64,000 bases of DNA from an uncultured bacterium (lineage in GTDB: Bacteria > Patescibacteriota > Minisyncoccia > Phycocordibacterales > UBA9973), in NCBI GenBank assembly GCA_903825255.1, contig CAIJZZ010000030.1, positions 20,956-84,955 on the forward strand, in the 5' to 3' direction. This document shows positions 9,467 through 51,521 of the stretch, one piece after another. The notes under the pieces were generated by a model. The model was given only the letters and a program-made list of their open reading frames with translations. It was not told the DNA's origin and made no database searches. The translations under genes were made by a program, and so were the position numbers. Each line of letters opens with the position of its first letter. Within the stretch, counting starts at the first letter, position 1.

Positions 9467-10081
9467 ATGAAAGATGAAGATTTAAAAAATAAAGAAGAAA
9501 GTGAAATTGAAGTTAAACCAATAGATATTCCAGAGGAGGATGATGTTGTTGAATTTGAGTTTAACGATGATGGGGAGGAAGATTTAAAGAAAACTCTTAA
9601 GAAATTAAGAGCTGATTTAAAAATATATAAGAAAGAAAAGGAAGAATATTTGACTGGTTGGCAGAAAGAGCGAGCGGATTTTATTAATTATAAAAAAGGA
9701 GAAGATGATCGCAAGGCTAATTTTTCAGAAGCGATGCGTGAAAGAATACTTATGCGTTTTTTGACCGTTTCTGATAGCTTTAATATGGCTTTTGCTAATA
9801 AAGAAGCTTGGGAAAAAGTAGATGAAAATTGGCGCAAAGGAGTGGAATATATTTATTCTCAAATGAATGTTATTTTTGAAGAATTTGGATTGAAGCCAGT
9901 AGGAGAAATCGGAGAAGCTTTTGATCCATCTCTTCATCAATCAATTGAAATGGTTGTCACCGATAAAAAAGAAGATGATCATAAGATTGCAGAAGTAGTC
10001 TTACGAGGTTACAAATTAACTGACCGGGTCATTCGAGCTGCGCGGGTAAACGTGTATGAATATAAAGAATCCGGAAAATAG
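9467..10081 (+). CDS. grpE: Nucleotide exchange factor GrpE
   Basis: RADFINYKK, GEAFDP.LHQ, GYKL.DRVIRAARV. Confidence 0.93.
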   Translation: MKDEDLKNKEESEIEVKPIDIPEEDDVVEFEFNDDGEEDLKKTLKKLRADLKIYKKEKEEYLTGWQKERADFINYKKGEDDRKANFSEAMRERILMRFLTVSDSFNMAFANKEAWEKVDENWRKGVEYIYSQMNVIFEEFGLKPVGEIGEAFDPSLHQSIEMVVTDKKEDDHKIAEVVLRGYKLTDRVIRAARVNVYEYKESGK

Positions 10082-11735
10082 AAATTGTCAGAATTGTCGC
10101 AAAAATTTCACTATTGAAATAGAGGATTTTAACTTTTATGAAAAGATAAAAGTACCGGCACCGACGTGGTGTCCGGAATGTCGTCAGCAAAGACGTTATG
10201 CTTGGCGCAATGAGCGCACTTTGTACAGGCGTGATTGTGATCTATGTGGTAAAAGTACCGTTACAATTTATTCACCAAATAAAGATTTAATAGTATATTG
10301 TTTGAAGTGTTGGTGGGGTGACGGATGGGATGCAAGTTTTTATGGACGAGATTTCGATTTCTCTCGAACATTTTTTGAACAATATAAAGAATTACAATCA
10401 AAAGTTCCGAGAATGGCTTTACTTTCAAAAAACAGTATAAATTCAGATTATACAAATCACTCAGGAGATAATAAAAATACTTATTTATCTTTTTGTTGTT
10501 TTGATACAGAAGACGTTTTTTATTCAACCTGGGTAATGAAATCCAGAAACTCAATGGAATGCAGTTATATTTATGATAGTGGTGAAAGACTTTATCAGTG
10601 CATTGATTCACGAAAAGTTTATCATTGTCAGTATAGTTTTTTATTAGAAAATTGTGTTGACAGTCTATATTGTTATGATTGTCACAATTGTAATAATTGT
10701 TTTATGTCTTCAAATTTGCGTAATAAAAGTTATGTTTTTAAAAATGAACAATATTCACGCGAAGGTTATTTAGAAAAAATTAAAGAATACGATCTTGGAT
10801 CCTATGAGACTCGTGAAAAATTGAGATTAGAATTTTTAGATTTAATGCTTCAGAATTCTATTCATCGTTATGCCATAATGGAACGCAATATAAATTCTAT
10901 TGGTAATCAACTATACAATAGTAAAAATTCAAAATATTGTTTTGATGCTGAGGTGCTTGAAGATACAAAATACCTTTACGCTTCACTGCAATTGAAGAAT
11001 TCAATGGATCTTTATCATATCGGCTGGAATACTGAGCTCGCTTATGAAATTCATGGCAGTCGAGGGCTTTATAATTCTCAATTTTGTCATCTTTGCTATG
11101 ACAATCAAGAATTACAATATTGCGATTCGTGTCAAAATTGTAAGAGTCTTTTTGGCTGTATTTCCGTGAAGAAAGGTAATTATATGATTTTAAATAAAAA
11201 ATATGAGAAAGTTGAATATGAAGCATTAAAAGGTAAAATTATCGAACATATGAAAAGCACCGGAGAATATGGAGAATTTTTTCCTCCTTCCATTGCACCG
11301 GTGTGTTATAACGAAACACAGGGTAATTATTATATGCCTGAAACTAGAGAAACAATTTTGGCTCGTGGCTGGACTTGGGAAGATCAAGTTTTGGGAACAT
11401 ATGGTAAAGAGACGATTAAAACAGAAGATATTCCAGATGATATAAAAAATATCACAGATGATTTTATTTTTAATATTTTAAAATGCGAAGATTGTAATAA
11501 AAATTTTAATATTATTCCTAATGAATTAAATTTTTATCGTCGCGAAGAAGTTCCGATACCACATAAATGCCCTGAATGTCGTTATAAGATGCGTTTCGCT
11601 ATTCGTTTACCTCGTCGTCTTTGGCATCGAAAATGCATGAATGAAGGCTGTCAAAATGAATTTGAAACTCCATATGCACCAGAAAGAAAAGAAATGGTTT
11701 TTTGTGAGTCGTGTTATAACAAAAAGATTTATTAA
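10056..11735 (+). CDS. Cys-rich multi-zinc-ribbon protein, paralog 1 (array A)
   Basis: N-terminal CQNC..F.IE..DF.FY...VP.PTWCPECR, CxxC-x17-CxxC, two Cys-rich repeat blocks, C-terminal CESCYNKKIY; overlaps grpE by 26 nt. Confidence 0.85.
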   Translation: MNIKNPENRNCQNCRKNFTIEIEDFNFYEKIKVPAPTWCPECRQQRRYAWRNERTLYRRDCDLCGKSTVTIYSPNKDLIVYCLKCWWGDGWDASFYGRDFDFSRTFFEQYKELQSKVPRMALLSKNSINSDYTNHSGDNKNTYLSFCCFDTEDVFYSTWVMKSRNSMECSYIYDSGERLYQCIDSRKVYHCQYSFLLENCVDSLYCYDCHNCNNCFMSSNLRNKSYVFKNEQYSREGYLEKIKEYDLGSYETREKLRLEFLDLMLQNSIHRYAIMERNINSIGNQLYNSKNSKYCFDAEVLEDTKYLYASLQLKNSMDLYHIGWNTELAYEIHGSRGLYNSQFCHLCYDNQELQYCDSCQNCKSLFGCISVKKGNYMILNKKYEKVEYEALKGKIIEHMKSTGEYGEFFPPSIAPVCYNETQGNYYMPETRETILARGWTWEDQVLGTYGKETIKTEDIPDDIKNITDDFIFNILKCEDCNKNFNIIPNELNFYRREEVPIPHKCPECRYKMRFAIRLPRRLWHRKCMNEGCQNEFETPYAPERKEMVFCESCYNKKIY

Positions 11736-11742
11736 AATTGAA

Positions 11743-13410
11743 ATGGAAAATAAAAGTGAAAACAAAATATGTCAAAACTGTCACACGGAATTCATAATTG
11801 AACCAGACGATTTCAATTTTTATGAAAAAATGCAGGTGCCAGCACCCGAAAAATGTCCAGATTGTAGACAGCAATTGCGAATGCTTTATCGGAATTTTAA
11901 AACTCTTTACAGAAGACCTTCTAGCCTATCTGGGAAAATGATTATTTCTATGTATGATTCTGATGTGTTATTTCCTGTTTATGATGTTGCCGAATGGTGG
12001 AGTGATGATTGGGAAGGGTTGTCCTATGGACAGGAAATTGATTGGGATAAGACGATTTTTGAGCAATTAGATTCCTTATTTAATATAGTTCCTCATATAT
12101 GTGTAATGAACACTAAGAGTGAAAATTGTGAGTATTCAAATATGGTAATTTCTAGTAGAAATTGTTATTTAAATTTTGGCTGTGTGGAAAATGAAAATTG
12201 TGATTATGGACATATTGTTTGGAATTCCAGAGATTCTATAGACAATCTTTATATATATAAATCTGAAGCTTGTTATGAATGTATTGATTGTATAAATTGT
12301 AATAACCTTCTCTTTTCTCAAGAATGCGAAAGTTGTGCTGAGAGTATTGGCCTTTTTGACTGCAAGGGTTGTGTGAATTGTATTGGTTGTGTTGGTCTTA
12401 TAAATAAGTCTTACTATATTTTTAATAAGCCAGCGAATAAACAAGAATATGATTCATATTTGAAATACAATCCGATCAGTGATAATAAAAATATTATTAA
12501 GATTTTAGAAGAAAGAGAAAAACTACGCAAAGAAATTCCCCAAAGATCCTTTTTTGGTTTTAGAAATAATAATGTTTCAGGTAATCATATATATAATGCT
12601 AGAAATGTTCACTATTCTTTTGATGTTAAAGGAGGAGAAAATTCTAAATTTTGTTTTACTACAAGAAAAGCCTTGGATAGTTATGATGCTTCTTTCAATC
12701 CTGATATTTCTGAATGCTATCAAATATTAAATTGTACTGGAAGCAATAAAGTGTTATTTTCGCAAGGGGTGATTGATTCCCACGATGCACATTATTCTGA
12801 CTTTTGTTACAATTGTGACAATATTTTTGGTTGTTGTGGGCTTCGCAAAAAATCTCATTGCATATTTAATAAGCAGTATTCAAAAGAAGAATATAAAGAT
12901 ATTTTATCTAAGATAATAAAAAAAATGAAAGAAGATAATGAATGGGGTCTTTTTCTTTCTGAAAAATTAAAAGTCTTTACTTATAATGAATCAATTGCAA
13001 ATGAATATATGCCACTTAGTAAAGAAGAGGCATTAAATAAGGGTTTTGGCTGGAAAGATACTATACCAAGTACTAGTGGTCAAGAAACTATTAATTTTGA
13101 GAAATTACCAAAAGATCCTAAAGAGTATGATGAAAATTTATTAAAAGAAGTTTTTGCTTGTGATGAATGTCATAAAAATTATCGCTTGATAAGCAGGGAA
13201 ATAGCTTTTTACAAAAGACAACATTTATCATTACCCCAAAAGTGTTTTAATTGTCGGCATGAAAATAGAATGAAATTACGAAACCCTAGGACTTTATTTG
13301 ATGCAATATGTACAAAGTGTGGCAAAGATATAAAAACTTCTTATGATCAAAATAAACAAAAAATTTATAAAATTTATTGCGAGGAATGTTATAACAAAGA
13401 AGTATATTAA
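11743..13410 (+). CDS. Cys-rich multi-zinc-ribbon protein, paralog 2 (array A)
   Basis: Same architecture; start reassigned to ATG 11743 (MENKSENKICQNC), 7 nt after the upstream stop. Confidence 0.85.
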   Translation: MENKSENKICQNCHTEFIIEPDDFNFYEKMQVPAPEKCPDCRQQLRMLYRNFKTLYRRPSSLSGKMIISMYDSDVLFPVYDVAEWWSDDWEGLSYGQEIDWDKTIFEQLDSLFNIVPHICVMNTKSENCEYSNMVISSRNCYLNFGCVENENCDYGHIVWNSRDSIDNLYIYKSEACYECIDCINCNNLLFSQECESCAESIGLFDCKGCVNCIGCVGLINKSYYIFNKPANKQEYDSYLKYNPISDNKNIIKILEEREKLRKEIPQRSFFGFRNNNVSGNHIYNARNVHYSFDVKGGENSKFCFTTRKALDSYDASFNPDISECYQILNCTGSNKVLFSQGVIDSHDAHYSDFCYNCDNIFGCCGLRKKSHCIFNKQYSKEEYKDILSKIIKKMKEDNEWGLFLSEKLKVFTYNESIANEYMPLSKEEALNKGFGWKDTIPSTSGQETINFEKLPKDPKEYDENLLKEVFACDECHKNYRLISREIAFYKRQHLSLPQKCFNCRHENRMKLRNPRTLFDAICTKCGKDIKTSYDQNKQKIYKIYCEECYNKEVY

Positions 13411-13413
13411 TTT

Positions 13414-15114
13414 ATGAAATCAGAAGTTAAACAATGCCAAAACTGCAAAAACGACTTTATTATTGAGCCAGATGATTTTTCTTTTTATGAAAAAATGAGA
13501 GTGTCAACACCGACGTTTTGCCCAGAATGCAGATTTATCCGACGACTTTGTTGGCGTAATGAAAGATCATTATATAAACGCATATGTGATTTATGTAAAA
13601 AAAATATTATTTCAATGTATGACAAAGATGTCACTTTTCCGGTTTATTGTCCGGATTGTTGGCGTAGTGATGCTTGGAATCCCATGGAATATGGAAAAGA
13701 ATATGATTTTTTAAAATCATTTTTTGATCAATTTAAAGAATTATTTTATAAAGTTCCACGTATTTCTGTTTGGTCACTTAGAAATAATATAAATGTTGAA
13801 TATGCCAATTTTGTTTATAATTCGAAAAATATTTACCTATCTTATTCAATAATTGATGATTCAGAAGATATCTTTTTTTCAAGTAACCTTGATGATTCAA
13901 AATCAATGATTGATGTATATAATGCATCAAAAAGTGAATTTGTTTACGAATCTATAGGATCTGTAAAAAACTATAATTGCAAATATACATATTGGTCATC
14001 AAGTTGTGTTGATTGTAGTTTTATCCTTGATTGCATAAATTGCTCGGATTGTTTTGCTTGTGTAAATTTAAGAAATCAAAAATATTGTATTTGGAATGTG
14101 GAATATTCGAAAGAAGAATATTTAAATAAAATTAAAAAAATTAATATAGGAAGCTATGAATCACTTCAAAAAAACATACGTGAGTTTTGGGATTTTTCTT
14201 TAAAATTTCCTAGAAAATATACTCGAATATTAAATAGTCATAATTCTAGTGGTGATGAACTTCGTGATTGTAAAAATGTTAATTATTCATTTAATTGTTT
14301 TAATTCAGAAAATGCAAAATATGGATATAGATCTCCTAGTATAAAAGATGCTATGGATATAAACCATTTTCATAATGCTGAATTAGCTTATGAACATTCG
14401 ACTGGAGGCTCATTCAATAGTTCTAATATTAAATTTATTATTAATGGTGGAGATGCAACAAATGGATTAGAATATAGTGATTTTTGTCATTCTTCAAATA
14501 ATCTCTTTGCGTGTATTGGTATAAAGTCAAAAAATTATTGTATTTTTAATAAGCAATATGGAAAAGCAGAATATTTTGAAATAGTAGAAAAAATTAAGAA
14601 GCAGATGAATAAAATGCCTTACATAGATAAAAAAGGTAATGAATATAAATATGGAGAATTTTTTCCTTCTGAGCTTTCACCCTTTGGTTATAATGAAACG
14701 GTTGCTAATGATCATTTTCCATTAGAAAAGGAAAAAATTTTAGAAGGAGGTTATAATTGGAAAAATAAAGAAGAAAACAAATATAAAATTACGAAAAAAG
14801 CAAAAGAATTACCAGACGATATAAAAGATGTTGACGATTCAATTTTAAATGAAGTGATAGAATGTGCTCAATCAAAAAAGGCTTTTAAAATAACACCCTT
14901 TGAACTTCAGTTTTATCGTAGAATGAATATTCCGATTCCTAGACTTCATCAAGACGAAAGATACAAAAAAAGGCTTACCTTGAGAAATCCAATGAAACTC
15001 TGGCATCGAAAGTGTATGCATAAAGATTGTGTGAATGAATTTGAAACTCCTTATGCGCCAGAACGGCAGGAGATAATTTATTGCGAACGTTGTTATCAGC
15101 AAGAAGTTTATTAA
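13414..15114 (+). CDS. Cys-rich multi-zinc-ribbon protein, paralog 3 (array A)
   Basis: MKSEVKQCQNC...CERCYQQEVY. Confidence 0.85.
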   Translation: MKSEVKQCQNCKNDFIIEPDDFSFYEKMRVSTPTFCPECRFIRRLCWRNERSLYKRICDLCKKNIISMYDKDVTFPVYCPDCWRSDAWNPMEYGKEYDFLKSFFDQFKELFYKVPRISVWSLRNNINVEYANFVYNSKNIYLSYSIIDDSEDIFFSSNLDDSKSMIDVYNASKSEFVYESIGSVKNYNCKYTYWSSSCVDCSFILDCINCSDCFACVNLRNQKYCIWNVEYSKEEYLNKIKKINIGSYESLQKNIREFWDFSLKFPRKYTRILNSHNSSGDELRDCKNVNYSFNCFNSENAKYGYRSPSIKDAMDINHFHNAELAYEHSTGGSFNSSNIKFIINGGDATNGLEYSDFCHSSNNLFACIGIKSKNYCIFNKQYGKAEYFEIVEKIKKQMNKMPYIDKKGNEYKYGEFFPSELSPFGYNETVANDHFPLEKEKILEGGYNWKNKEENKYKITKKAKELPDDIKDVDDSILNEVIECAQSKKAFKITPFELQFYRRMNIPIPRLHQDERYKKRLTLRNPMKLWHRKCMHKDCVNEFETPYAPERQEIIYCERCYQQEVY

Positions 15115-15177
15115 TTATTATTTTTTGAATTTGTGTGGTATAATATAGACGAGACATAGAAGTCTCGCTTTGTTTTT

Positions 15178-16956: not shown

Positions 16957-17511
16957 TTATTTTTTGAGACTTTCTAAAAATGCGAGATTAGTTTCTGGAT
17001 CGAGTTTGTCAGTGACGATGATCATGAGCTCTGTTCCAAGACCTAAATCTTTTTTAATATTTGTGAAAAGGTGTTCATATGGAAGTGGGGAGATCCAAAC
17101 AGTATTTTTTACGCAGACGAAGTTCGCTTTTTTTAATAAATAACGGATCGCTTCACGTTCACTTTTGCGTTCCTCTGGAATATCAATAATAATAATTCGC
17201 CAAAAGCCGTCCCAAGTATTCGGCACGAGGGCTTCACCACCCTCAAGCTGTATTGTATTTAATTTCTTTTTTCCTTCTTTAGTGAGGCGCGCATAATCGT
17301 TTTGGCCAGATGAAAGCTGTTCAATGAGCCCTGCTTCTCGAAGTCCTTTTAAAGAGCGGGTAAGGGCGTAGGAAGCGTTTTTAGAGCAATCTTGGGTGTT
17401 CACCTTATTATTCAGTTCTGATAGGGAAATGGCTGGTTTTTCGGCTAAAAGCTTCAAAATAGCCTTTTGAATATTGGGGTTTTTTTTGTTTGGGATATCC
17501 TTCTTATTCAT
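16957..17511 (-). CDS. PaaX-like transcriptional regulator (wHTH plus ferredoxin-like central domain)
   Basis: wHTH ...LREAGLI...RLTKEG followed by WDGFWRIIIIDIPE...VWISP. Confidence 0.75.
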   Translation of the reverse strand: MNKKDIPNKKNPNIQKAILKLLAEKPAISLSELNNKVNTQDCSKNASYALTRSLKGLREAGLIEQLSSGQNDYARLTKEGKKKLNTIQLEGGEALVPNTWDGFWRIIIIDIPEERKSEREAIRYLLKKANFVCVKNTVWISPLPYEHLFTNIKKDLGLGTELMIIVTDKLDPETNLAFLESLKK

Positions 17512-17612
17512 ATACTTGACATTGTATCATATATAAATATAATATCAACAAGTATTTTGCGGTCACGAAATACTTGTCAAAAATAATGAAGAGGTATATA
17601 ATAGAAAACATT

Positions 17613-18057: not shown

Positions 18058-19974
18058 ATGTCAAAAATAATAGGTATAGACTTAGGAACAACAAATTCGG
18101 CCGTGGCTATCATTGAAGGTGGCGCCCCGAAAATAGTCGAAAATGTGGAAGGCAATCGCACGACGCCTTCTGTGGTAGCGACAGCCAAGAATGGTGATCG
18201 TATTGCCGGTCTTTTAGCGAAGCGTCAAGCAGTGACAAATCCAGAAAATACAATTTCTGAGATTAAACGTTATATGGGTCATAGATTTGATGATCCAGGT
18301 GTACAAAAAGATAAAACTTCAGCTCCATTTAAAATTGAAGCTAGTGAAGATGGTGGTGTGAAGGTAAAAATGTCTGATAAATTTTATCGTCCAGAAGAAA
18401 TTTCTGCGATGATTTTACAGAAAATAAAAACAGATGTGGAAACTAAATTAGGTGAGAAAATTACTGAAGCTGTTATTACTGTGCCAGCTTATTTTAATGA
18501 TGCGCAAAGAAAAGCTACCAAAGATGCAGGTCTTATCGCTGGGCTTGATGTAAAACGCATTATTAACGAACCGACAGCCGCAGCTCTTGCTTACGGATTC
18601 GATAAAAAGAAAAATGAAAAAATAGTAGTATATGATTTCGGTGGCGGAACCTTTGATGTATCTGTACTTGAAATCGGAGATGATGTCATAGAAGTGAAGT
18701 CTACTGATGGTGATAGTCATATGGGTGGAGGTGATATTGATCGTAAGATGATTGCTTGGATTGCGGAAGAATATAAAAAGGAATCTGGTATGGACGTACG
18801 TAAAGATCCACTCGCTCATCAAAGATTAAAAGAAGCAGCCGAAAAAGCTAAACACGAACTTTCTACCACTATGGAAACAGAAATTAATATTCCATTTATT
18901 ACTTCTGATGCTTCAGGTCCAAAACATTTGTTAATGAAAATGTCTCGAGCTACTTTGGAATCTCTTGCAAAAGAATATATTGATCACTCTATTGAAATTA
19001 CTAAGAGGGCACTCGAAGCCTCACCATTTAAGATGAATGAAATTAATGAAATCATTATGGTGGGCGGACAGACTCGAATGCCGGCAATCGTAGAAGCTGT
19101 GAAAAATCTTTTTGGTAAAGCTCCAAATATGACGATTAATCCTGATGAAGTGGTTGCCTTAGGCGCAGCTGTGCAAGCTGGAGTCTTAGCTGGAGATGTA
19201 CGAGATGTTTTGCTTTTAGATGTTATACCGCTTTCGCTTGGTATTGAAACCTTGGGAGGAGTAGCCACAAAATTAATTGAACGCAATACCACTATTCCAT
19301 CTTCTAAATCTCAAATCTTTTCTACGGCTGCGGACAATCAAACTTCTGTAGAAATTCACATTGTGCAAGGAGAACGCCCAATGGCTACTGACAATAAGAG
19401 TCTCGGTAGATTTATTTTAGATGGCGTACCGCCAGCTCCAAGAGGCATTCCTCAAGTGGAAGTGACTTTTGATGTAGATGCGAATGGAATTTTAAATGTA
19501 AAGGCGCTAGAAAAAGCATCTGGTAAAGTGCAATCAATAAAGATTGAGGCAAGTTCTGGACTCAAAGATGAAGACATTAAGAAAATGCAACAAGATGCAG
19601 AAGTGCATGCAGAAGAAGATAAAAAGAAAAGGGAAGTTGCGGATGTTAAAAATACTGCTGAAATGATTATTTACACTGCAGAAAAAGCTTTGAAAGATAA
19701 TGAAGCAAAAATCGGAGCGGAATTAAAAGATGAAGTGAATAAAAAAATCACTACGCTTCGTACTGTAAAAGATGGTACTGATGCGGAGGCGATTAAAAAA
19801 GCAACTGAAGAGCTTTCAGCTGAAATGTCTAAGATAGGCGAAGCGATGAATAAAGCTAATGCCGAAGCCGGACAAACTCCACCAAACCCAGGAACTGGAA
19901 CGGAAGAGCAAGGTCCAGAAATTCATAATGCTGAATTCAAAGAAGGTGATAAACCTGAAGATGAAAAGAAATAA
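18058..19974 (+). CDS. dnaK: Chaperone DnaK
   Basis: [38 protein letters not shown]. Confidence 0.99.
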
Positions 19975-20051: not shown

Positions 20052-22301
20052 ATGGATTTACCCCAAATACCTTTAAACAAAGATTTGACTTACATCGGAC
20101 TCACGACTTTTCGTGATAAAAATACTCTTTTCGGTATCAAGCGCAAAGATAGGCGTCAGCACGTATATTTACTTGGAAAGTCAGGTACTGGTAAATCAGT
20201 GTTGATGTTTAATATGGTTATTCAAAATATTATCAACGGTGAAGGTGTTTGCGTAGTTGATCCTCATGGAGAATTAGTCGAGGGAATTTTATCGGCTATA
20301 CCACCAAATCGTTTGAAGGATGTAGTATATTTTAATCCAGCTGATATTGATTATCATATTGGTTTTAATGTTTTGGAATTAATTGATCCACAATATAAAC
20401 ATTTGGTCGCCTCAGGACTCATGGGTATTTTTACGAAAATTTGGGCGAATGCTTGGAGTGCTCGTATGGAATACATTTTAAACAATGCGATTTTGGCATT
20501 ACTAGATACTCCTGGAACAACCTTGCTTGGAATTCCTCGAATGCTCGTGGACAAAGATTATCGTCAGAAAATAATTTCAAATTTAAAAGATCCAGTGATC
20601 AAGGCTTTTTGGGTGCATGAATATGAAGCTTGGCAAGATAAGTTTCGTAATGAAGCCATCGCCCCGATTCAAAATAAAGTCGGACAATTTCTTTCAACTT
20701 CCATTATTCGAAATGTTGTTGGTCAGTCAAAAAGTACGATAGATATTTTTGAAATTATGAACAGTGGAAAAATTTTTCTTGTAAACGTTTCAAAAGGGCG
20801 TATTGGTGAAGACAACTCTGCATTACTCGGAGGGATGATCATCACCAAAATTCAATTAGCAGCGATGGAACGTGTACGTATTCCTGAAGATGACCGTAAA
20901 GATTTTTATTTATATGTCGACGAATTCCAAAATTTCGTAACAGAATCTTTTGCTGGTATTTTATCTGAAGCTCGAAAATATCGTTTGAATCTTACAGTGG
21001 CGCACCAGTACACAGCCCAACTCGTTTCAGACAAAAGTTCAGCTGTGCGAGATGCAGTTTTTGGCAACGTCGGGACGATGATTGTTTTTCGAGTCGGCTC
21101 AGATGACGCAGAATTTTTAGAAAAAGAATTTGATCCAGAATTCACTCCATCGGACATTGTGAATTTACCAAACTATAAAATTTATCTAAAACTAATGATT
21201 GATGGGGTTACTTCAAGACCATTTTCTGCAAAGACGTTACCGCAGATGGTAAAATCAGGTAATATAGAAATCGAGCAAGAAGTTATTAAATCATCCCGTG
21301 CCCTTTATTGTAGATCCAGAGAAGATGTTGAACGTGAAATCAATAATTGGAGCGGAATGTCGCTTGGAGATGATATTACTAGTGCTGGTGATGTCGAAAT
21401 GTTTGCGGCAATTTGTTCTATTTGTCATAAAGAGACAAAGGTGCCATTTAAACCACAACCAGATAGACCAGTGTATTGTAAAGATTGTATTGCTAAAATG
21501 AAGACAGGAGAGTTGAAACCTCTTCGAGGCTCAATGAATCAAATTAAAGAAGATGAAATTAAATTTTTTAAACCATTAGCAGATTTGGGTATTGAATTTG
21601 AACCAAAAGAGAAACACACTGAGTCTGAAAGATATCCAGAAAGAACAAATGAAAATAAGCCGATTATGAGTAGTAATAAACCAAAAATTTTTGGAGCTCT
21701 TAAAAAAGTTTTTACCCCGTCACTCGCGAGCAACAGGGTTACACCATCATCTGCAAACAATACAGCTAATAAAAATATTCCACCTATAAATCCACAGCCG
21801 ATAAATAGGCCGAATCCTGTTTATGTAAAAAATGATTTTAAAAATCAAAATCAAAAATCAACTTTTGTAAATAAGGAAAAAACTAGAGACAACTCAGCCT
21901 TGCGAGATATTTTAAATAAGACTCTTTCTGAAAATAAAGTTTTTGAAGTCAAAAAGGAAGAACCAAAAATGGAAGAAATTAAAAAAGAGACTCCTCCACC
22001 GATCTCCTTGAGCGATTTAAAAGTTCAAAAACCAGCTAATATTTCAAATTTAAAGGATCGAGGAGCAAGTGTTGAAGATATGAGTAAATTAAAGAATTTA
22101 ATTTCAGAAACAAAAATTCCTATACCTGAACCTACTAAAGAAACTCCTGTTTTTGTTCCTGAGCCCATAAAAGAAATTCCAAAAGAAGAACCTAAAGAAG
22201 AAATAAAAAAAGAAGAAAAATCTGTTCCCATTCCTTCAGTTTCACCGTCTGGAAAGGTACGCGAAGTACCAGAAGATGTTTTAAGAAAAATTTTAGAATA
22301 A
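20052..22301 (+). CDS. TraD/VirD4/HerA-like P-loop ATPase with a CxxC-x17-CxxC domain and a low-complexity tail
   Basis: Walker A GKSGTGKS, DPHGE, Walker B LYVDEFQNF, EARKY; CSIC-x17-CKDC; P/E/K-rich C-terminus. Confidence 0.85.
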   Translation: MDLPQIPLNKDLTYIGLTTFRDKNTLFGIKRKDRRQHVYLLGKSGTGKSVLMFNMVIQNIINGEGVCVVDPHGELVEGILSAIPPNRLKDVVYFNPADIDYHIGFNVLELIDPQYKHLVASGLMGIFTKIWANAWSARMEYILNNAILALLDTPGTTLLGIPRMLVDKDYRQKIISNLKDPVIKAFWVHEYEAWQDKFRNEAIAPIQNKVGQFLSTSIIRNVVGQSKSTIDIFEIMNSGKIFLVNVSKGRIGEDNSALLGGMIITKIQLAAMERVRIPEDDRKDFYLYVDEFQNFVTESFAGILSEARKYRLNLTVAHQYTAQLVSDKSSAVRDAVFGNVGTMIVFRVGSDDAEFLEKEFDPEFTPSDIVNLPNYKIYLKLMIDGVTSRPFSAKTLPQMVKSGNIEIEQEVIKSSRALYCRSREDVEREINNWSGMSLGDDITSAGDVEMFAAICSICHKETKVPFKPQPDRPVYCKDCIAKMKTGELKPLRGSMNQIKEDEIKFFKPLADLGIEFEPKEKHTESERYPERTNENKPIMSSNKPKIFGALKKVFTPSLASNRVTPSSANNTANKNIPPINPQPINRPNPVYVKNDFKNQNQKSTFVNKEKTRDNSALRDILNKTLSENKVFEVKKEEPKMEEIKKETPPPISLSDLKVQKPANISNLKDRGASVEDMSKLKNLISETKIPIPEPTKETPVFVPEPIKEIPKEEPKEEIKKEEKSVPIPSVSPSGKVREVPEDVLRKILE
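21714..21739. repeat. Short palindromic element in the ATPase tail
   Basis: ACCCCGTCACTCGCGAGCAACAGGG, 22/25 identical to the reverse complement of 29341-29365. Confidence 0.7.
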
Positions 22302-22317: not shown

Positions 22318-24075
22318 ATGACAGAAAAAACAGAAACTCGGGTTTGCCAAAACTGTAAACAAAACTTCACTATAGAGTCTGAGGATTTTAGTTTTTATAA
22401 TAAAATCGGAGTACCAGCACCACTTTGGTGCCCTCGTTGTAGATTTTTACGAAAACTCACTTATTTAAATGACCGTTGTCTTTATAAAAGCAATTGTTCA
22501 AATTGTAAAGAAAATATTATTTCCAGATATCATCCAGATTCCAATGTACCAGCTTGGTGTATGAAATGTCATATTAGTGACACTTGGGATGGTAGAGATT
22601 ATGGTAGAGAATATGATTTTTCTAAAAATTTTTTTGAACAATTCAATGAGTTAAGAAGTGTTGTGCCTCAACGGGCACTTGATAAAAATGAAAGAAACGG
22701 CCCAGGTTGTGAATATTCGAATTACTGTTTTACTAGTAAAAATATTTATTTATCATATTGTGTGCATAAATCAGAAAATATTAAATACTGCAAACATACT
22801 TATTTGGATACTAAAAATTGTCTTGATTGTTTAAGGGTTAAAAAAAGTGATCGTTGTTATGAAATAGTCCAATCTAGTGATAGTTTCAGTTCTACTTTTT
22901 TAATTGAGAGCGAACAATGTATTTCATCACATTTTTTATTTGATTGTGTAAATTGTATTGATTGTTGTATGTCATCGGGACTTCGAAATAAAAGTAACGT
23001 TTTTCGAAATAAACAATATTCTAAAGAAGAATATCAAAAAGCGATTTCTGAGTTACGACTCGATACTTATTCAGGTCAAAAAATAGCCAAAGAAGAATTC
23101 GAAGAGCTGGCTCGAAATTCTATTCACCGATTTGCTCATATAAAAAATTCTATAAATTGTGCAGGTGATTTTATTGCGAATTCAAAGAATTGTGTTCATT
23201 GTTATGGTATAGAAACTGCAGAAAATTTGAAAAATTGCTTTCTTTCTATGGCACCCAATGTTCAAGATTCTCAAGATCTTATAATGACAGGAAGAGGAGA
23301 GGAGTGTTATGAAAGTACAAATGCAGGCCGAGGTATGAGCCGAGTACTTTTATCATTTAGCTGTGGTAGTGGTTGTAGAAATATACTCTATAGTGATGGT
23401 TGTCGAGGTTGTATAGATTGTTTTGGCTGCATTAGTTTAATAAATCAAAAGTATTGTATTTTAAATAAACAATATTCTAAAGAGGAATATTTTAAAACAG
23501 TTGAGGAAATAAAAAAACAAATGAACGAAGTACCCTATGTTGATAAAATCGGCAGGGTATATGGTTTTGGTGAATGTTTTCCACCAGAACTTTCTCCTTT
23601 TACATATAATGAGAGTTTTGCTTTTGAAGAACATCCTTTATCTCGCGAAGAAGCCTTGGCTAATGGCTATAAATGGAGAGAAAGGGAATCTAAGGCTTAT
23701 ACGTCTTCTATCCAAGTAAACGATATTCCTGAAAGTATACACGATGTTTCTGATTTAATTTGTGATGGAACTATTGAGTGTTTAAATAAAGGAAAAGTGG
23801 AGACTCTCTGTACTTCGGCTTTTAAAATATTACCTGATGAACTAGTTTTTTATAAACAAATGAATTTACCTATACCTAGATATTGTCCAAATTGTAGGTA
23901 TTATGATCGTATAAAATGGAGAAATCCTTTTAATTTTTATACCAGAGAATGTATGTGTGGTCTTTTAAATCATAATCATAAAGGGAAATGTTCAAATAAA
24001 TTTGAGACTATGTATGCGCCGGAAAAGCCAGAAATTATTTATTGCAAGGAGTGCTATCAGAGAGAAGTGTATTAG
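22318..24075 (+). CDS. Cys-rich multi-zinc-ribbon protein, paralog 4 (array B)
   Basis: MTEKTETRVCQNC...CKECYQREVY; lies between the two ATPases. Confidence 0.85.
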   Translation: MTEKTETRVCQNCKQNFTIESEDFSFYNKIGVPAPLWCPRCRFLRKLTYLNDRCLYKSNCSNCKENIISRYHPDSNVPAWCMKCHISDTWDGRDYGREYDFSKNFFEQFNELRSVVPQRALDKNERNGPGCEYSNYCFTSKNIYLSYCVHKSENIKYCKHTYLDTKNCLDCLRVKKSDRCYEIVQSSDSFSSTFLIESEQCISSHFLFDCVNCIDCCMSSGLRNKSNVFRNKQYSKEEYQKAISELRLDTYSGQKIAKEEFEELARNSIHRFAHIKNSINCAGDFIANSKNCVHCYGIETAENLKNCFLSMAPNVQDSQDLIMTGRGEECYESTNAGRGMSRVLLSFSCGSGCRNILYSDGCRGCIDCFGCISLINQKYCILNKQYSKEEYFKTVEEIKKQMNEVPYVDKIGRVYGFGECFPPELSPFTYNESFAFEEHPLSREEALANGYKWRERESKAYTSSIQVNDIPESIHDVSDLICDGTIECLNKGKVETLCTSAFKILPDELVFYKQMNLPIPRYCPNCRYYDRIKWRNPFNFYTRECMCGLLNHNHKGKCSNKFETMYAPEKPEIIYCKECYQREVY

Positions 24076-25622: not shown

Positions 25623-26279
25623 ATGCAAAAAGACTACTACAAAACATTAGGGGTTGAGAAAGGCGCTTCAAAGGATGAAATCAAGAAGGCTTTTTATAAG
25701 TTGGCTCATAAACATCATCCAGATAAAAAAGGCGGTGATGAAAAGAAATTTAAAGAAGTAAACGAGGCTTATCAAGTTCTTTCAGATGACGCTAAACGTT
25801 CAAAATATGACCAATTTGGCTCTGGTTATGAGAATATGGCTGGTGGAGGCGGAAATTATGGAGCTTATCAACAAGGTGGTTTTGGAGGTTTTGATTTTTC
25901 TGGCTTTCAACAAGGTGGCGGGCAAGAGTTTGATTTTGGGAATTTAAATGATATTTTTAGTGATTTTTTTGGTGGTGGAGGAGGTTTTTATGCACGTACT
26001 CCTCATGGACGGGATATGCAGACTGAAATACAAATTTCTTTAACTGATTCTATTTTAGGTGTAGAAAAAAAGTTAGTGATCGGTGGGAATAAAGAATTAA
26101 AAATAAAAATTCCAGCAGGAATTCAAAATGGTCAAACTTTAAAAATGACCGGAGAGGGTGAACAAATAAAAAATGGTAAAGCGGGGGATTTGTATATAAA
26201 GATTAATATAAAAATATCAAGTAAGCTTTCTAAGCGCGCCCGCGAGCTCCTAGAAGAACTTAAAAAAGAAGGAATTTAA
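25623..26279 (+). CDS. dnaJ: Compact DnaJ-family co-chaperone (J domain, G/F region, single C-terminal domain, no Zn finger)
   Basis: DYYKTLGV...HPD, G/F-rich linker with [14 protein letters not shown]...GDLY. Confidence 0.85.
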
Positions 26280-44001: not shown

Positions 44002-44038
44002 GAATGAAAAAAAATATTAAATATGCTATATTATATAA

Positions 44039-44776: not shown

Positions 44777-44777
44777 T

Positions 44778-46200: not shown

Positions 46201-46208
46201 TTTTAAAT

Positions 46209-47957
46209 ATGAATTCTGAGAAAAAAGTTTGCCAAAACTGTCAGAAAAATTTTATTATTGAGTCAAACGATTTTTCTTTTTACGAAAAAATCAAAGTACC
46301 TCCACCGACTTGGTGTCCGGATTGTCGTTGTGCCAGGCGCATGGTTCACAGAAATGAAAAGAATTTACATAAAAGAACTTGTGACATAACTGGTAAAAAT
46401 ATTATTTCAATTTATCGTCCAGATTGTCCATATACTATTTGTGATAAAGATTATTATTTTTCGGATGATTTTGATCCATTAAAATATGGTCAAGAATATA
46501 ATACGAATATTAAATTCTTTGAACAATTTTATGAGTTTGCTAAAAAAGTTCCTTTTCCGTCTCTCTTCGTTAGAAATTCTCTAAACTGTGAATATAATCA
46601 AGATATGGGTGGAGCTTCTAACTGCTATCTTTGTTTTCGAACACATGACTCACAAAATATGCTCTACACCTATCGAGGAAATCATTCAGCTTACTGTACT
46701 GACTGTTTTCAAGCAGTTGTGCAATCAGAGTTTTTATACGAATGTGTAAATGTCATTACCTGTAGTAATAGTAAATTTTTACATAATTGTGAAAAATGTT
46801 CTGATTCAGCTTTCTTATACAATTGTTCTGGTTGTGTAGATTGCTTTATGTGTATAAATATACGAAACAAGCAGTGCTGTTTTAAGAATGAACAATATTC
46901 TCGCGAAGATTATAAAAAAATATTAGATTCATATAATCTTTCTACATACGAAGGACAACAAAAAGCACTAACTGAATTTGAAGAATATATTAAAGAAAAT
47001 CCTAAAAGAAATTTATCAATTTTTAGGTCAAACAATGTTGTCGGTGATAATATTTTTGACTCTAAAGATAGTAAGAATGTTTGGAATGTGCGAGATTTAG
47101 AAAACTGTTCATATATCTGGGATTCTTTTAATTTTAAAGATTGCATGGATACATATTCTGGAGCTAAAGCAGAACTTATTTATGAGTCTACAGCCACTAC
47201 CAAGGGCAGTAGTAATTGTCATTTTTGTGTGAGGGTGCATAGTGGGTCACGAGATTGTGAATATAGTTGGTTTTTACAAAATTGTTCAAACTGTTTCGGT
47301 TGTGTTGGACTTCGAAATAAAGAATACTGTATTTTTAATATTCAGTATGAAAAAAATGAATATGAAAAACTTTTGTCAGAAATAAAATCAAAAATGCTCG
47401 AAGATAAAGAATATGGAGAATTTTTCCCGTTTTACACTTCACCTTTTCCATACAATGATACTGTTGCGAATGAATATTTTCCTGAAAGTGAGGAATGGGC
47501 TAAAGAGAGGGGGATGAAGTGGGGGAGTTTCGAGGAAAAAAATTATAAATCTACAATCTCTTCAGAAAATTTACCGAATGATATAAAAGATGTACAGGAC
47601 TCAATTTTAAATGAAATAATTACTTGTGCACACAATGGTGAATGTGCTCATAACTGCACAAAGGCTTATAGAATAGTTGCCGATGAATTAGCTTTTTATC
47701 GAAGAAGAAATTTACCATTACCCCGAGAATGTCCTAATTGTCGATATTATCGTAGGTTGGATTATCGTAATCCGACTGTCTTGCGGGAAACCGTCTGCAT
47801 GTGTGAAGGTGAAGGCATAAGTAATGGTGTATATAAAAATACAGTACTACATCAGCATGGAGCAGGGTTTTGTGGAAAAAATATTAATACTACTATAAGA
47901 GATGATTCAGGTTTTTTGATTTATTGTGAGGAATGTTATAAAAAAGAAGTTTTTTAA
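46209..47957 (+). CDS. Cys-rich multi-zinc-ribbon protein, paralog 5 (array C)
   Basis: MNSEKKVCQNC...CEECYKKEVF. Confidence 0.85.
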   Translation: MNSEKKVCQNCQKNFIIESNDFSFYEKIKVPPPTWCPDCRCARRMVHRNEKNLHKRTCDITGKNIISIYRPDCPYTICDKDYYFSDDFDPLKYGQEYNTNIKFFEQFYEFAKKVPFPSLFVRNSLNCEYNQDMGGASNCYLCFRTHDSQNMLYTYRGNHSAYCTDCFQAVVQSEFLYECVNVITCSNSKFLHNCEKCSDSAFLYNCSGCVDCFMCINIRNKQCCFKNEQYSREDYKKILDSYNLSTYEGQQKALTEFEEYIKENPKRNLSIFRSNNVVGDNIFDSKDSKNVWNVRDLENCSYIWDSFNFKDCMDTYSGAKAELIYESTATTKGSSNCHFCVRVHSGSRDCEYSWFLQNCSNCFGCVGLRNKEYCIFNIQYEKNEYEKLLSEIKSKMLEDKEYGEFFPFYTSPFPYNDTVANEYFPESEEWAKERGMKWGSFEEKNYKSTISSENLPNDIKDVQDSILNEIITCAHNGECAHNCTKAYRIVADELAFYRRRNLPLPRECPNCRYYRRLDYRNPTVLRETVCMCEGEGISNGVYKNTVLHQHGAGFCGKNINTTIRDDSGFLIYCEECYKKEVF

Positions 47958-47963
47958 TTCTTT

Positions 47964-48036
47964 ATGGAGACAGAAACAAAAATATGCCAAAACCCGCCCG
48001 TACCGAATGTACGTTCGGGCGGGCTATAAACAAGAT
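47964..48036 (+). pseudogene. Relic 5' end of a further paralog, interrupted by a palindrome
   Basis: ATG GAG ACA GAA ACA AAA ATA TGC CAA AAC (METETKICQN), then a 31-nt insert, then TAT AAA CAA GAT (compare CQNCKQD). Confidence 0.7.
47993..48023. repeat. GC-rich palindromic element
   Basis: CCCGCCCG-TACCGAATGTACGTT-CGGGCGGG. Confidence 0.75.
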
Positions 48037-49785
48037 ATGAATATTAATAGTGAAAATCAAATATGTCAGAACTGTCATGGTGAATTTATAATCGAGCCGG
48101 AAGATTTTAATTTTTATGAAAAGATAAAAGTACCTCTTCCAACTTTTTGTCCGGAGTGTAGAATTAAAGTGCGTTTAGCAGCTTTAAATCACGGTGTTTT
48201 ATTTATGAGTAATTGCTCTAAATGTAAAAAAGAAATGCCTTCTATGTATCAAAAAAATACAGATTTTATCGTTTATTGCACAGAATGTTATTTTAAAGAT
48301 GATTGGGATGCTTCAAGTTATCAACAAGATTATGATTCTTCAAAGAATTTTTTTATTCAAATTTATGAACTTATAAAAAAAATTCCACAATTACACATTG
48401 AACATACTAATAATAATACCGAGGATATTATTTTTTCAAACTATGTTTATAGAAGTAAATCAGTTTATTTGTCTTATGGCGTAGTGCGTAGCGAAAATAT
48501 ATTTTATTCATGGGGATCACACAATCTAAATAAAAATTGTTTTGATTGTATGGAATTTTCAGAGAATGAATCTTGTTATGAAATATTAGATTCTAATCAT
48601 AATTATGGATGTTTATATTTAAATCGTTCAATTAACTGCCTAGATAGTCAATATCTTTTTGATTGTTCAAATTGCACAAATTGTTTTATGTCTTCTAATT
48701 TAAGGAATAAGTCTTGTGTATTTAAAAACATTCAATATTCTAGAGAAAAATATTTTGAATTAATTGAAAAGGAGAATTTAAAAAATTTTGAAAATCGAAA
48801 AAAACTTGAAGAAGAATATGTTGAATTATCAAAAAATGCCATACATAAATATACTATAGTACACAGTACAATTAATTGTACTGGAGATGAAATAATTAAT
48901 TCAAAAAATATTAAGTCAGGTTTTTCTGTTCAAGATTCAGAAGATAGTGCTTATATTCAAATTACAACTAATAAAATAATGAATTGTATGGATATGTCTT
49001 TATCTGGTAGGGCTGAGTTTTGTTATAATTTGGCTGTGTGTGGTAGAGGAAATTATAATGCTCTATGTTCTAATAATGTTGGTGATACAAGAGATATTTT
49101 TTACTGTGATAGTAGTAATCATATTAAAGATTGCTTTGGTTGTGTAGGTGTAAAACACAAAGAATTTTGTATTTTAAATAAACAGTATTCAAAAGAAGAA
49201 TATTTTAAGTTAGTTGAAGTTATTAAAAAAGATATGTCACAAAATCCATATATTGATTCTATGGGACGAAAGTTTTCTTTCGGAGATTTTTTTCCATTTG
49301 ATTTTTCTAGATTTGCCTATAATCAAAGTATGGCTTATGAAATGTTTACAGAAACAGAATCTGAGATTAAAAAACAAGGGTTATCTTGGATTTCTTTAAA
49401 TAAAGGCAATCATGAACACACTTGTGAATTTAAGGAAATCCAAGAAGATTTAAAAAAAGATTATCAAAAAATTATTGAAAGTAAATTTCCCTGTGATAAT
49501 CGAGGCGAAACGCATCTTTGTACAAAGTCTTTTAAAATAACAAAATCAGAATTGGATTTTTATATTAAATATAATTTACCCCTACCTCGAAAGTGTCCAA
49601 ATTGTCGTTACTTTAAAAGAAAAAATAAAAAATTACCTTGGAGACTCTGGCATAGAACTTGTATGTGTGATAAAGCTAATCATGAGCATTCTGGGAAGTG
49701 TAAAGTAGAATTTGAAACAAGTTATTCACCTGAAAGGACGGAGAAAGTTTATTGTGATAAATGTTATAAACTAGAAGTTTATTAA
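48037..49785 (+). CDS. Cys-rich multi-zinc-ribbon protein, paralog 6 (array C)
   Basis: Start reassigned to ATG 48037 (MNINSENQICQNC); ends CDKCYKLEVY. Confidence 0.85.
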   Translation: MNINSENQICQNCHGEFIIEPEDFNFYEKIKVPLPTFCPECRIKVRLAALNHGVLFMSNCSKCKKEMPSMYQKNTDFIVYCTECYFKDDWDASSYQQDYDSSKNFFIQIYELIKKIPQLHIEHTNNNTEDIIFSNYVYRSKSVYLSYGVVRSENIFYSWGSHNLNKNCFDCMEFSENESCYEILDSNHNYGCLYLNRSINCLDSQYLFDCSNCTNCFMSSNLRNKSCVFKNIQYSREKYFELIEKENLKNFENRKKLEEEYVELSKNAIHKYTIVHSTINCTGDEIINSKNIKSGFSVQDSEDSAYIQITTNKIMNCMDMSLSGRAEFCYNLAVCGRGNYNALCSNNVGDTRDIFYCDSSNHIKDCFGCVGVKHKEFCILNKQYSKEEYFKLVEVIKKDMSQNPYIDSMGRKFSFGDFFPFDFSRFAYNQSMAYEMFTETESEIKKQGLSWISLNKGNHEHTCEFKEIQEDLKKDYQKIIESKFPCDNRGETHLCTKSFKITKSELDFYIKYNLPLPRKCPNCRYFKRKNKKLPWRLWHRTCMCDKANHEHSGKCKVEFETSYSPERTEKVYCDKCYKLEVY

Positions 49786-49787
49786 TT

Positions 49788-51521
49788 ATGCAAAGCGAAA
49801 TCAAACAATGCCAGAATTGTAAACAAGACTTTACTATCGAGCCAGAAGATTTTAATTTTTATGAAAAGATAAATGTCCCGGCACCGACCTGGTGTCCGGA
49901 GTGCCGAATGGTAAGGCGAATGCTCTTTAGAAATGAAAGATCTTTATATAAACAGAATTGTGGTCTCTGCGGTAAATCTGCGATTTCAATGTATGATCCA
50001 GAAAAAAATTATATGGTATATTGTCTCGATTGTTACAATTCTGATAAATGGGATCCGAAAGATTGTGGCGTAGATTATGATTTTTCAAAATCATTTTTTA
50101 GTCAACTTGAAGATCTATATAAAAAAATTCCTAGAAAAGTACTTTATCAAGATTTTGCAATTAATAGTGAATATACAAATCAAATTGTTTACATAAAAAA
50201 TAGTTATCTTTGTTTTGGTGGACATCATTACGAAGATTGTGCTTATTGTGCCCAGAATTTCTTTTTAAAAAATTGCTTAGATGTTGATTTTTCTAGTAAA
50301 AGTGAATTTTGTTTTGATTCTTTTCATTTGAGAAATTGTTTTCGAATACGATTCGGATATTATTCAGAAGATTGTATGGATTCTTGGTTTATCTATGATT
50401 GTCGTAATTGTTCTAATTGTGTTGGATGCACTAATTTACGTAATAAAAGTTATTGTATTTTTAATGAGCAATATGAGAAGGGAGAATATGAAAATAAACT
50501 AAAAGAATTAAATTTATCCAATCCTGATAATTTAGAACAAGTGAATAAGACTTTTTGGCAACACTCATTAAATTATCCTCGAAAATATGCCAATATAAAA
50601 AATATTACTAATTCGACGGGGGATGATATGGAACAAGTGAGAAATTGTCGACATTCATTTTCGGTCACTGAAGATGAAAATGTGAATTATTCTTTTTTTG
50701 TGCCGACTGGAGGAAAAGATTGTTTTGATATTGATCATGTGGGATTGGGTACGACAGAAACATATGAATTGCATAGTGGTTTTGGGGATAACAGAGTTTT
50801 CTTTTCCAATCGAGTATATTTTTCACATAGTGTAGAATATTCTGACGATTGCTATAATTGTGAAAATCTTTTTGCTTGCGCAGGATTACGTAAAAAGCAA
50901 TATTGTATCTTTAATAAAGAATATTCTAAAGAAGAATATATTGAATTAGTTTCTAAAATTAAAAAGCAGATGGATGAAATGCCTTATGTAGATTCTAAAG
51001 GTAGAATTTATAAATATGGTGAATTTTTCCCGATAGATATAATGCCTTTTGCTTATAATGATTCAGTTATACATGAATACTTTCCATTAACTAAAGAAGA
51101 AATTTTAAACAAGGGATATAAATATAAAGAACCTGAAATAAAAAATTATAAACCTACAATGTTAGCGCATCAATTACCTGGAATTGAAAAAGCAGATGAG
51201 AACGTCTTAAAAGAAATTATTCAATGTGAGCATATGGGGCATTGTAATGATAAATGCACGATTGCATTTCGAATCATTCAAAATGAATTAAATATCTGTA
51301 AAATGTTGGGAGTTCCATTACCTAGACTTTGTCCAAACTGCCGGCATATGGAAAGAATGAAATTATTAAATCCACCGAAGCTTTATCATAGGGAGTGCAT
51401 GTGTGATAAGACTGGACATATGCATAATGGTAAATGTACTATTGAATTTGAGACACCGTATTCTACAAAAAGACCAGAAATTATTTATTGTGAAAAATGT
51501 TATCAACAAGAGGTGTATTAA
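49788..51521 (+). CDS. Cys-rich multi-zinc-ribbon protein, paralog 7 (array C)
   Basis: MQSEIKQCQNCKQD...CEKCYQQEVY. Confidence 0.85.
   Translation: MQSEIKQCQNCKQDFTIEPEDFNFYEKINVPAPTWCPECRMVRRMLFRNERSLYKQNCGLCGKSAISMYDPEKNYMVYCLDCYNSDKWDPKDCGVDYDFSKSFFSQLEDLYKKIPRKVLYQDFAINSEYTNQIVYIKNSYLCFGGHHYEDCAYCAQNFFLKNCLDVDFSSKSEFCFDSFHLRNCFRIRFGYYSEDCMDSWFIYDCRNCSNCVGCTNLRNKSYCIFNEQYEKGEYENKLKELNLSNPDNLEQVNKTFWQHSLNYPRKYANIKNITNSTGDDMEQVRNCRHSFSVTEDENVNYSFFVPTGGKDCFDIDHVGLGTTETYELHSGFGDNRVFFSNRVYFSHSVEYSDDCYNCENLFACAGLRKKQYCIFNKEYSKEEYIELVSKIKKQMDEMPYVDSKGRIYKYGEFFPIDIMPFAYNDSVIHEYFPLTKEEILNKGYKYKEPEIKNYKPTMLAHQLPGIEKADENVLKEIIQCEHMGHCNDKCTIAFRIIQNELNICKMLGVPLPRLCPNCRHMERMKLLNPPKLYHRECMCDKTGHMHNGKCTIEFETPYSTKRPEIIYCEKCYQQEVY

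Follow-up and report, generated by a model that had tools for sequence, protein, structure and literature searches.

An unnamed family of zinc-finger-capped solenoid proteins in Patescibacteria and its association with soluble VirD4-like ATPases

INTRODUCTION

What are seven cysteine-rich paralogs, alike at both ends and diverged in between, doing among the housekeeping genes of a small bacterial genome? The genes lie in a 64,000-nucleotide (nt) stretch of contig CAIJZZ010000030.1 (assembly GCA_903825255.1), from an uncultured member of the Patescibacteria; this whole stretch is called the window here. An earlier note on the window, made from the sequence alone, read them as a diversified repertoire that combines a constant scaffold with a variable binding surface. 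We find that they belong to a family that is very large, unnamed, soluble, and restricted to the Patescibacteria, and that follows, across genomes, one of two ATPases encoded in the same window (ATPase1 and ATPase2). Its members may well be partners of these ATPases.

The Patescibacteria, or candidate phyla radiation, account for much of the diversity of bacteria, have genomes under 1 Mb, and interact with hosts in ways that are mostly unknown. The link between the family and the ATPases joins two unknowns, the core domain of the family and the "orphan" VirD4-like ATPases, into one testable module. For protein engineers, the solenoid core may also be of interest as a clear-cut case from nature of a constant scaffold whose variable face is set by the register.

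RESULTS

All seven genes proved to be intact open reading frames on the forward strand, encoding 555 to 585 amino acids (aa) each (copies 1 to 7, Table 1) and adding up to 12,039 nt, in agreement with the 12 kb first estimated. In a whole-length alignment the copies are 35 to 43% identical to copy 1, and a profile built from the seven scores each member at E values of 5e-240 to 3e-276. The motif noticed at the N terminus is invariant in all seven copies (C11, Q12, N13, C14, F18, I20, E21, D24, F25, F27, Y28, K30, V33, P36, C39, P40, C42, and R43), as is the C..CY motif at the C terminus. Divergence is indeed concentrated centrally, with solenoids 32 to 35% identical compared to 65% for the first finger. 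The close packing described earlier, with gaps of 2 to 7 nt, holds inside the arrays (7, 3, and 2 nt) but not for copies 5 and 6, which are 79 nt apart. The longest reading frames of copies 2 and 6 begin upstream, at an ATG at 11641 and a GTG at 47926, respectively; the alignment supports the later start codons of the earlier note as the probable ones. As in the earlier note, no transmembrane (TM) segment was found, and the highest 19-residue Kyte-Doolittle mean in 16 copies of the genome is at most 1.57. The predicted isoelectric points of these copies are 5.3 to 7.8.

Seven is the count for the window and not for the genome, since the seven-copy profile found 17 matches on 8 contigs of the 980-kb, 78-contig assembly (96% complete). 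These 17 genes occupy about 29 kb, a total that may be slightly inflated because the assembly is rated 6.3% contaminated. The ten matches outside the window adjoin ordinary genes: rseP/frr, a pseudouridine synthase gene, the RNase Y gene, map, ddl, the gene for the CCA-adding enzyme, and argS/ileS. On contig C49 (10437-11396), a 318-aa family fragment with an in-frame TAA, covering model positions 256 to 578, adjoins an intact copy and is probably a decaying copy itself.

Counting copies in relatives showed that copy number is not constant: each of 24 congeneric genomes searched contains the family, with 1 to 26 matches. It was not found in 16 genomes representing 16 other families of the same order. 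A draw of 401 genomes from the class contained the family in 53, and a draw of 301 from the phylum contained it in 18, 16 of them from other classes; its occurrence outside the class is a new observation. In a word-indexed search, 7,165 of 8,000 scored candidates matched the family at an E value of ≤1e-3, and all candidates listed were named "hypothetical protein" except for one "CxxC-x17-CxxC domain-containing protein." A core-only profile had 4,176 matches among 1.84 billion representatives at 50% identity, 1,794 of them at an E value of ≤1e-30, and the core occupied the same position in all 150 matches listed. Relatives were absent from the INPHARED phages, PLSDB plasmids, and IMG/VR contigs searched. 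As the earlier note had anticipated, no characterized family could be assigned: domain, sequence, fold, and defense-model searches gave no enzyme or named-family match, Atlas matches were to unnamed clusters only, and the core domain carries no name in any database searched. A literature search, conducted in part on titles and the beginnings of abstracts, found no description of the family, and in the term-searchable text of a 2026 Minisyncoccota review the words cysteine, zinc, and paralog do not occur.

ATPase1 and ATPase2 show Walker A and B motifs (GKSG(T/V)GKS and YLYVDEF) and match TrwB_AAD_bind (E value of 1.9e-9), TraG-D_C, and T4SS-DNA_transf. TraD and VirD4 models match at E values of 1e-10 to 1e-15, with scores far below every equivalog cut-off, and the only solved relative found by sequence is TrwB (E value of 0.0045). 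A TM anchor was not found in either protein, no 19-residue hydropathy mean reaching 1.6. VirB4 (PF03135), the only type IV secretion system (T4SS) component searched for, had no match in the 96%-complete genome, while the control matched 1 of 14 named genomes. With neither a TM anchor nor a VirB4-type T4SS partner found, the ATPases are properly labeled VirD4-like. A 242-nt stretch with 70% identity (20769-21010 in ATPase1 versus 24900-25141 in ATPase2) is a trace of their paralogy at the DNA level.

The two ATPases differ in distribution, ATPase1 being universal and ATPase2 linked to the family, a division that has not, as far as our searches reach, been described. ATPase1 homologs are present in 396 of the 401 class genomes, making ATPase1 a core gene. 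Orthologs of ATPase2 (E value of ≤1e-150) are present in 53. When the genome lists of ATPase2 and the family were compared with the source genome excluded (n = 400), 44 genomes had both, 8 had the family with no ATPase2 found, 8 had ATPase2 with no family member found, and 340 had neither. Covariation is also seen inside single families, such as one (f71) with both present in 7 genomes and both missing from 5.

Gene order points the same way. ATPase2 and one or more family genes adjoin ATPase1 in all six family-bearing loci inspected from four other families, in the order ~440-aa protein, (small TM protein), ATPase2, family gene(s), ATPase1; in all six family-less loci, from six families, ATPase1 stands alone. 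In four of five genomes of other classes, the distance between a VirD4-like ATPase gene and family genes is 87 nt to 3.4 kb. ATPase1 is 65 to 66% identical to the window's protein in two family-bearing genomes from other orders versus 55 to 56% in two family-less genomes from the same order. DnaK identity in the same comparison follows taxonomy (75 and 68% versus 67 to 69%). The ATPase1 pattern, drawn from five genomes, hints at coevolution or joint transfer of the cassette.

A shared domain connects the two sets of proteins as well. The source genome has 12 zf_Tbcl_2 matches, 1 in ATPase1 and 11 in family genes. Each end of a family protein carries a pair of treble-clef fingers, zf_Tbcl followed by zf_Tbcl_2, and subthreshold matches at both ends to zf_Tbcl, zf_Tbcl_2, and TIGR04272 are the only domain matches of the seven proteins. 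None of the seven reached the 24-bit gathering cut-off of PF13451 (zf_Tbcl) in a protein scan (best, 20.9 bits); a six-frame search of the genome gave 14 matches, all in family genes and 2 above the cut-off. The best scores of window copies were 26.9 bits for PF23477 (zf_Tbcl_2; cut-off, 27) and 23 bits for NCBIfam TIGR04272 (cut-off, 36), and in the genome search one family gene, on contig C67, passed the curated zf_Tbcl_2 cut-off. Finger DNA cross-matches between the N- and C-terminal ends of family genes. The terminal modules of every copy thus resemble the models of small treble-clef proteins (PF13451 and PF23477/TIGR04272), but here two finger pairs cap a core of ~380 aa that lies outside all of these models.

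Conservation of the fingers was followed in 86 full-length copies from the source genome (16 rows) and five congeners. Ligand positions hardly vary in the outermost fingers, with Cys in 83 to 84 copies at the N terminus and in all 86 at the C terminus (Czf2). The inner fingers are partly lost, their ligand columns holding Cys in 54 to 71 copies at the N-terminal end and 68 to 85 at the C-terminal end; the window examples are copies 2, 5, and 3. Inductively coupled plasma mass spectrometry has shown zinc binding by small proteins of the CxxC-x17-CxxC type from Methanosarcina mazei (PMC12704099). Judging from the ligand pattern and by analogy with those proteins, the family fingers are likely to be occupied by zinc.

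Between the fingers, the core is predicted to contain a homologous pair of very narrow beta-solenoids, each coil being 12 residues long, and after them a small alpha/beta domain. For copy 7, the AF2 model, built from a 56-row alignment, has a predicted local distance difference test score (pLDDT) of 82.2 and a predicted template modeling score of 0.84 (segments are given in Table 1). The two solenoids are homologous by hhalign (probability of 99.9%, E value of 3e-35, 126 columns), and across the 86 copies the lag-12 autocorrelation of column entropy is 0.57 in one and 0.48 in the other. Arranged at 12 residues per row, the core reveals in every coil a single conserved stripe, [K/E]-x-C-Y-x, along with about seven positions of high entropy. 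This register bears out the proposal of a constant scaffold with a paralog-specific surface, and, together with the conservation of its variable faces among orthologs, it is new. Cys-Cys spacings in a 47-row core alignment are enriched 2.2- to 5.1-fold at multiples of 3 and depleted elsewhere. Ladder cysteines interchange with Ser, Val, Ile, and Leu across the 86 copies, so most of them are core-packing residues; near-constant core cysteines are limited to a cap cluster, C205/C208/C211/C214 (74 to 82 copies), and C364 (84 copies).

Fold searches gave no significant match. With the full 577-residue copy 7 model as the query, Foldseek gave no significant match in the PDB (best E value of 0.24; threshold, 1e-3), and VIA fold searches gave best Z scores of 3.0 in the wide search and 3.4 in a second look, none reaching 5. 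The best structural matches were the beta-helix domains of GlmU and LpxD (Z scores of 3.0 to 3.4 over 113 to 118 residues; root mean square deviation, 2.6 to 4.2), and the family profile found only a LIM-like match among PDB sequences (E value of 0.71). The family resembles these hexapeptide left-handed beta-helices in its predicted solenoid built from short coils, whose Cys/Ser ladder faces inward, but the hexapeptide coil has 18 residues, the family period is 12, and there was no Hexapep match at an E value of ≤1. The insect antifreeze protein TmAFP is a beta-helix with 12-residue coils; the family proteins differ from insect antifreeze proteins in being apparently cytoplasmic and in having no TxT-type ice-binding face.

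Ongoing diversification, which the diversified repertoire of the earlier note might suggest, was not supported. Uniform purifying selection, which the note itself had named in advance as speaking against that reading, is what orthologs revealed. Solenoid positions with a family entropy of at least 3 bits are 13% identical among the seven window paralogs, yet 74% identical in 12 copy 7 orthologs and 55 to 57% in two six-genome orthogroups. By region, copy 7 orthologs are 75 to 76% identical in the solenoids versus 57 to 80% in the fingers. In a FastTree phylogeny of the 86 copies, the six genomes interleave: placing the 16 rows of the source genome takes 13 label changes, copies of two to six genomes are united by many branches whose support is 95% or higher, and only one well-supported sister pair falls within the source genome. 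Near-identical DNA blocks are missing among the window copies, and recent gene conversion was not found there, the longest shared blocks being at most 123 nt with 60 to 90% identity. Because variable residues are conserved among orthologs, the repertoire is old and under purifying selection rather than actively diversifying, and the variable core is an old subfamily-specific surface.

What does change is the set of copies that a species keeps. For eight of the 16 source genome copies, an ortholog with at least 56% identity exists in one or more of the five congeners; for two, every congener has one. Ortholog identities of 56 to 77% compare with 49 to 89% for 21 neighboring housekeeping proteins in the same genomes. 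Gene phylogeny and ortholog counts therefore describe a repertoire that turns over by birth and death, with different species retaining different subsets.

DISCUSSION

We favor, at roughly an even chance, the reading that the family proteins are partners of a VirD4/TraD-like motor of ATPase1 and ATPase2, as specificity adaptors or as cargo. From co-distribution, adjacency, and the shared domain, we infer that they bind the ATPases physically. The constant finger modules would dock to the motor, ATPase1 itself bearing one such finger, and the docked protein would present its subfamily-specific solenoid surface. Family proteins would then act as interchangeable specificity adaptors or as cargo; we prefer adaptors, given that the proteins have the look of zinc-bound residents of the cytoplasm and evolve slowly. 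In Legionella, the DotL coupling complex includes a small zinc-binding subunit, DotN. Compared to the type IV coupling proteins TrwB of R388, VirD4, and TraD, the ATPases described here match in the ATPase domain and likewise have partner genes adjoining them, but they have no TM domain, VirB4 was not found, and the partner family has no counterpart among known T4SSs.

Several observations weigh against this reading. ATPase1 is nearly universal and therefore does not need the family. Eight genomes have the family only (G057, G081, G138, G194, G298, G339, G411, and G435), 4 of them at most 90% complete, and eight have ATPase2 only: the congeners G187 and G252; G049, G092, and G365; and G045, G243, and G304, whose ATPase2 is only 50 to 51% identical. 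The two-by-two comparison overstates the association because related genomes are not independent. A single copy of the 17 lies between the ATPases and three more lie ~5 kb away, most copies not being ATPase adjacent. The solenoids are the least confident parts of the model (pLDDT, 57 to 83), and the window fingers score below curated Pfam and NCBIfam cut-offs. Finally, no dnaK gene lies near the family in the six loci from other families, so the dnaK setting seen in the window is genus specific and the ATPase setting general.

The cargo alternative taken by itself would make the family an exported effector or surface repertoire; the ATPases would recognize the proteins by their constant termini and pass them to a minimal membrane machine built on a single-pass protein. 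Coupling-type ATPases do select substrates, in T4SS and in type VII secretion, and a candidate membrane component exists. This protein has ~440 aa, a single TM helix near its N terminus, and no family match, and its gene neighbors ATPase1 in all 12 loci, both the six family-less and the six family-bearing ones. The source genome has two copies of it, and on contig C49 the second one adjoins family genes. A third VirD4-like ATPase paralog carries, as its N-terminal half, a homolog of the soluble part of this protein, and this fusion links the membrane protein and ATPase genes functionally. The outermost fingers and extreme C terminus are the most conserved parts of the family proteins, and the repertoire varies between species. 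Nevertheless, we consider cargo unlikely: neither a signal peptide nor a TM segment was found, VirB4 (PF03135) was not found in the genome, orthologs evolve no faster than midrange housekeeping proteins, which is unusual for exposed effectors, and four zinc fingers suit a cytoplasmic protein better than an export substrate that must unfold.

The third ATPase paralog itself (C60:27676-30477) has 933 aa, and its N-terminal half has no predicted TM helix. Just upstream of the window (C30:16335-18792), a ~340-aa protein with Sigma70_r4 and HARE-HTH domains is followed by the ~440-aa single-pass protein. The pair recurs at loci L073, L074, L076, L077, and L079, and in the majority of the Paceibacteria genomes inspected it immediately precedes ATPase1 and lies between secDF and pgk.

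A broader proposal, doubtful at present, is that the family provides cargo or exchangeable substrate receptors for a new, membrane-associated translocation machine in ultra-small bacteria, made of soluble VirD4-like ATPases and the single-pass protein and having no canonical T4SS channel. If true, secretion or uptake would here run through a novel system, with clients that fill 3 to 5% of some genomes. Type VII secretion pairs EssC/EccC ATPases of the FtsK/SpoIIIE type with substrate paralogs that come in arrays, and by analogy the arrangement here, a HerA/FtsK-superfamily ATPase beside tandem paralogs with conserved ends in presumed single-membrane bacteria, may be comparable. The ATPases here, however, belong to the VirD4/TraD branch, and no WXG100/LXG substrates or Ess/Ecc parts turned up, although no search was aimed at them.

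In NTPase conflict systems, effector-associated domains act as shared adaptors. A defense or conflict module on that plan, with the paralogs as sensors of different target surfaces signaling to the NTPases through the common finger, would explain why NTPase and neighboring variable proteins share a domain and why copy number varies and the phyletic pattern is patchy; the ATPases also have weak HerA/mad8 matches in PADLOC (E value of 1e-12). We regard it as improbable, since none of three family proteins scanned matched PADLOC-DB 2.0 at an E value of ≤0.01, the module contains no recognizable effector (nuclease, protease, TIR, etc.), ATPase1 is a core gene, the slots are in housekeeping operons rather than defense islands, and purifying selection extends over the whole length of the proteins.

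The earlier note saw insertions into housekeeping neighborhoods, which understates the case: congeners keep the same slots, with 1 to 6 copies in each, and one grpE-dnaK-ATPase-ATPase-dnaJ block contains two of the three arrays. The window reads grpE, three copies, an ABC transporter, a PaaX-like regulator (reverse strand), dnaK, ATPase1, one copy, ATPase2, dnaJ, and the genus-wide order is grpE-[1-6 copies]-dnaK-ATPase1-[1-6 copies]-ATPase2-dnaJ. The third array has scpB/D-Ala-D-Ala carboxypeptidase on one side and mraY on the other. The dnaK setting invites the view that the proteins are structural rods or metal/thiol-related proteins tied to Hsp70 as clients, co-chaperones, or zinc buffers and that the ATPases are incidental neighbors. 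The window copies have 27 to 44 cysteines each, the CxxCxGxG zinc-finger domain was not matched in the local DnaJ at an E value of ≤1e-5, and contig C10 has a ZIP-family zinc transporter gene (C10:23636-24358) two genes away from its family copy. Even so, there is little to recommend the Hsp70 view, because no dnaK was seen near the family in the six loci from other families, the freely interchanging ladder cysteines are mostly packing residues and not ligands, and the ATPase association extends across families and classes. An enzyme was rejected after family and fold searches gave no match.

GENOMIC CONTEXT AND MINOR OBSERVATIONS

TABLE 1 Features of the window and segments of the copy 7 model
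Feature	Position	Strand	Remarks
grpE	9467..10081	+	PF01025, E value 4e-33; heads the transcription unit of the first array; order kept in 4 congeners
Family copy 1	10056..11735	+	559 aa; all four fingers intact; 26-nt overlap with grpE end; orthologs at 56-64% identity in 3 of 5 congeners
Family copy 2	11743..13410	+	555 aa; cysteines gone from second N-terminal finger; ortholog at 60% in 1 of 5 congeners
Family copy 3	13414..15114	+	566 aa, 27 Cys; three ligands gone from first C-terminal finger; ortholog at 62% in 1 of 5 congeners
Terminator-like hairpin	15150..15167	+	after copy 3; from consensus scan only
PaaX/ArsR-like helix-turn-helix (HTH) regulator	16957..17511	-	divergent from dnaK; position conserved in genus
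Sigma-70 promoter-like site	17516..17543	+	12/12 consensus; upstream of dnaK; from consensus scan only
dnaK	18058..19974	+	PF00012, E value 4e-241
ATPase1	20052..22301	+	soluble VirD4/TraD/TrwB-like P-loop ATPase; long low-complexity tail
ATPase1 zf_Tbcl_2 finger	21396..21503 (aa 449-484)	+	53.7 bits (cut-off 27); TIGR04272, 56.1 bits (cut-off 36)
Family copy 4	22318..24075	+	585 aa, 44 Cys; flanked by ATPase1 and ATPase2; orthologs at 58-60% in 2 of 5 congeners
ATPase2	24117..25607	+	finger-less paralog, 44% identical to ATPase1
dnaJ	25623..26279	+	218 aa; J domain and C-terminal domain matched
Family copy 5	46209..47957	+	582 aa; partial loss of second N-terminal finger; ortholog at 69% in 1 of 5 congeners
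Family copy 6	48037..49785	+	582 aa; best identity in five congeners ≤42%, no ortholog above
Family copy 7	49788..51521	+	577 aa; copy used for structure model; 70-78% identical orthologs in metagenomes, none in five congeners
Copy 7 finger	residues 1-45		predicted
Copy 7 finger	residues 54-85		predicted
Copy 7 helix	residues 103-113		predicted
Copy 7 solenoid 1	residues 120-225		predicted
Copy 7 helices	residues 231-260		predicted
Copy 7 solenoid 2	residues 265-378		predicted
Copy 7 helix	residues 381-397		predicted
Copy 7 alpha/beta part	residues 400-470		predicted
Copy 7 finger	residues 478-524		predicted
Copy 7 finger	residues 533-577		predicted

The single reverse transcriptase gene of the source genome (C40:22884-26396; PF00078, E value of 3e-19) has beside it a pair of 91-nt repeats, 85% identical and 2 kb apart. 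The mismatches are not adenine specific, and the element is therefore not a typical diversity-generating retroelement; targeting of the family by such an element was rejected, the flanks of the gene having no similarity to family genes.

The intergenic region between the HTH regulator gene and dnaK holds a second sigma-70 site (17574-17602, 11/12 consensus) in addition to the one in Table 1, and the PaaX/ArsR-like gene may encode a local heat-shock regulator.

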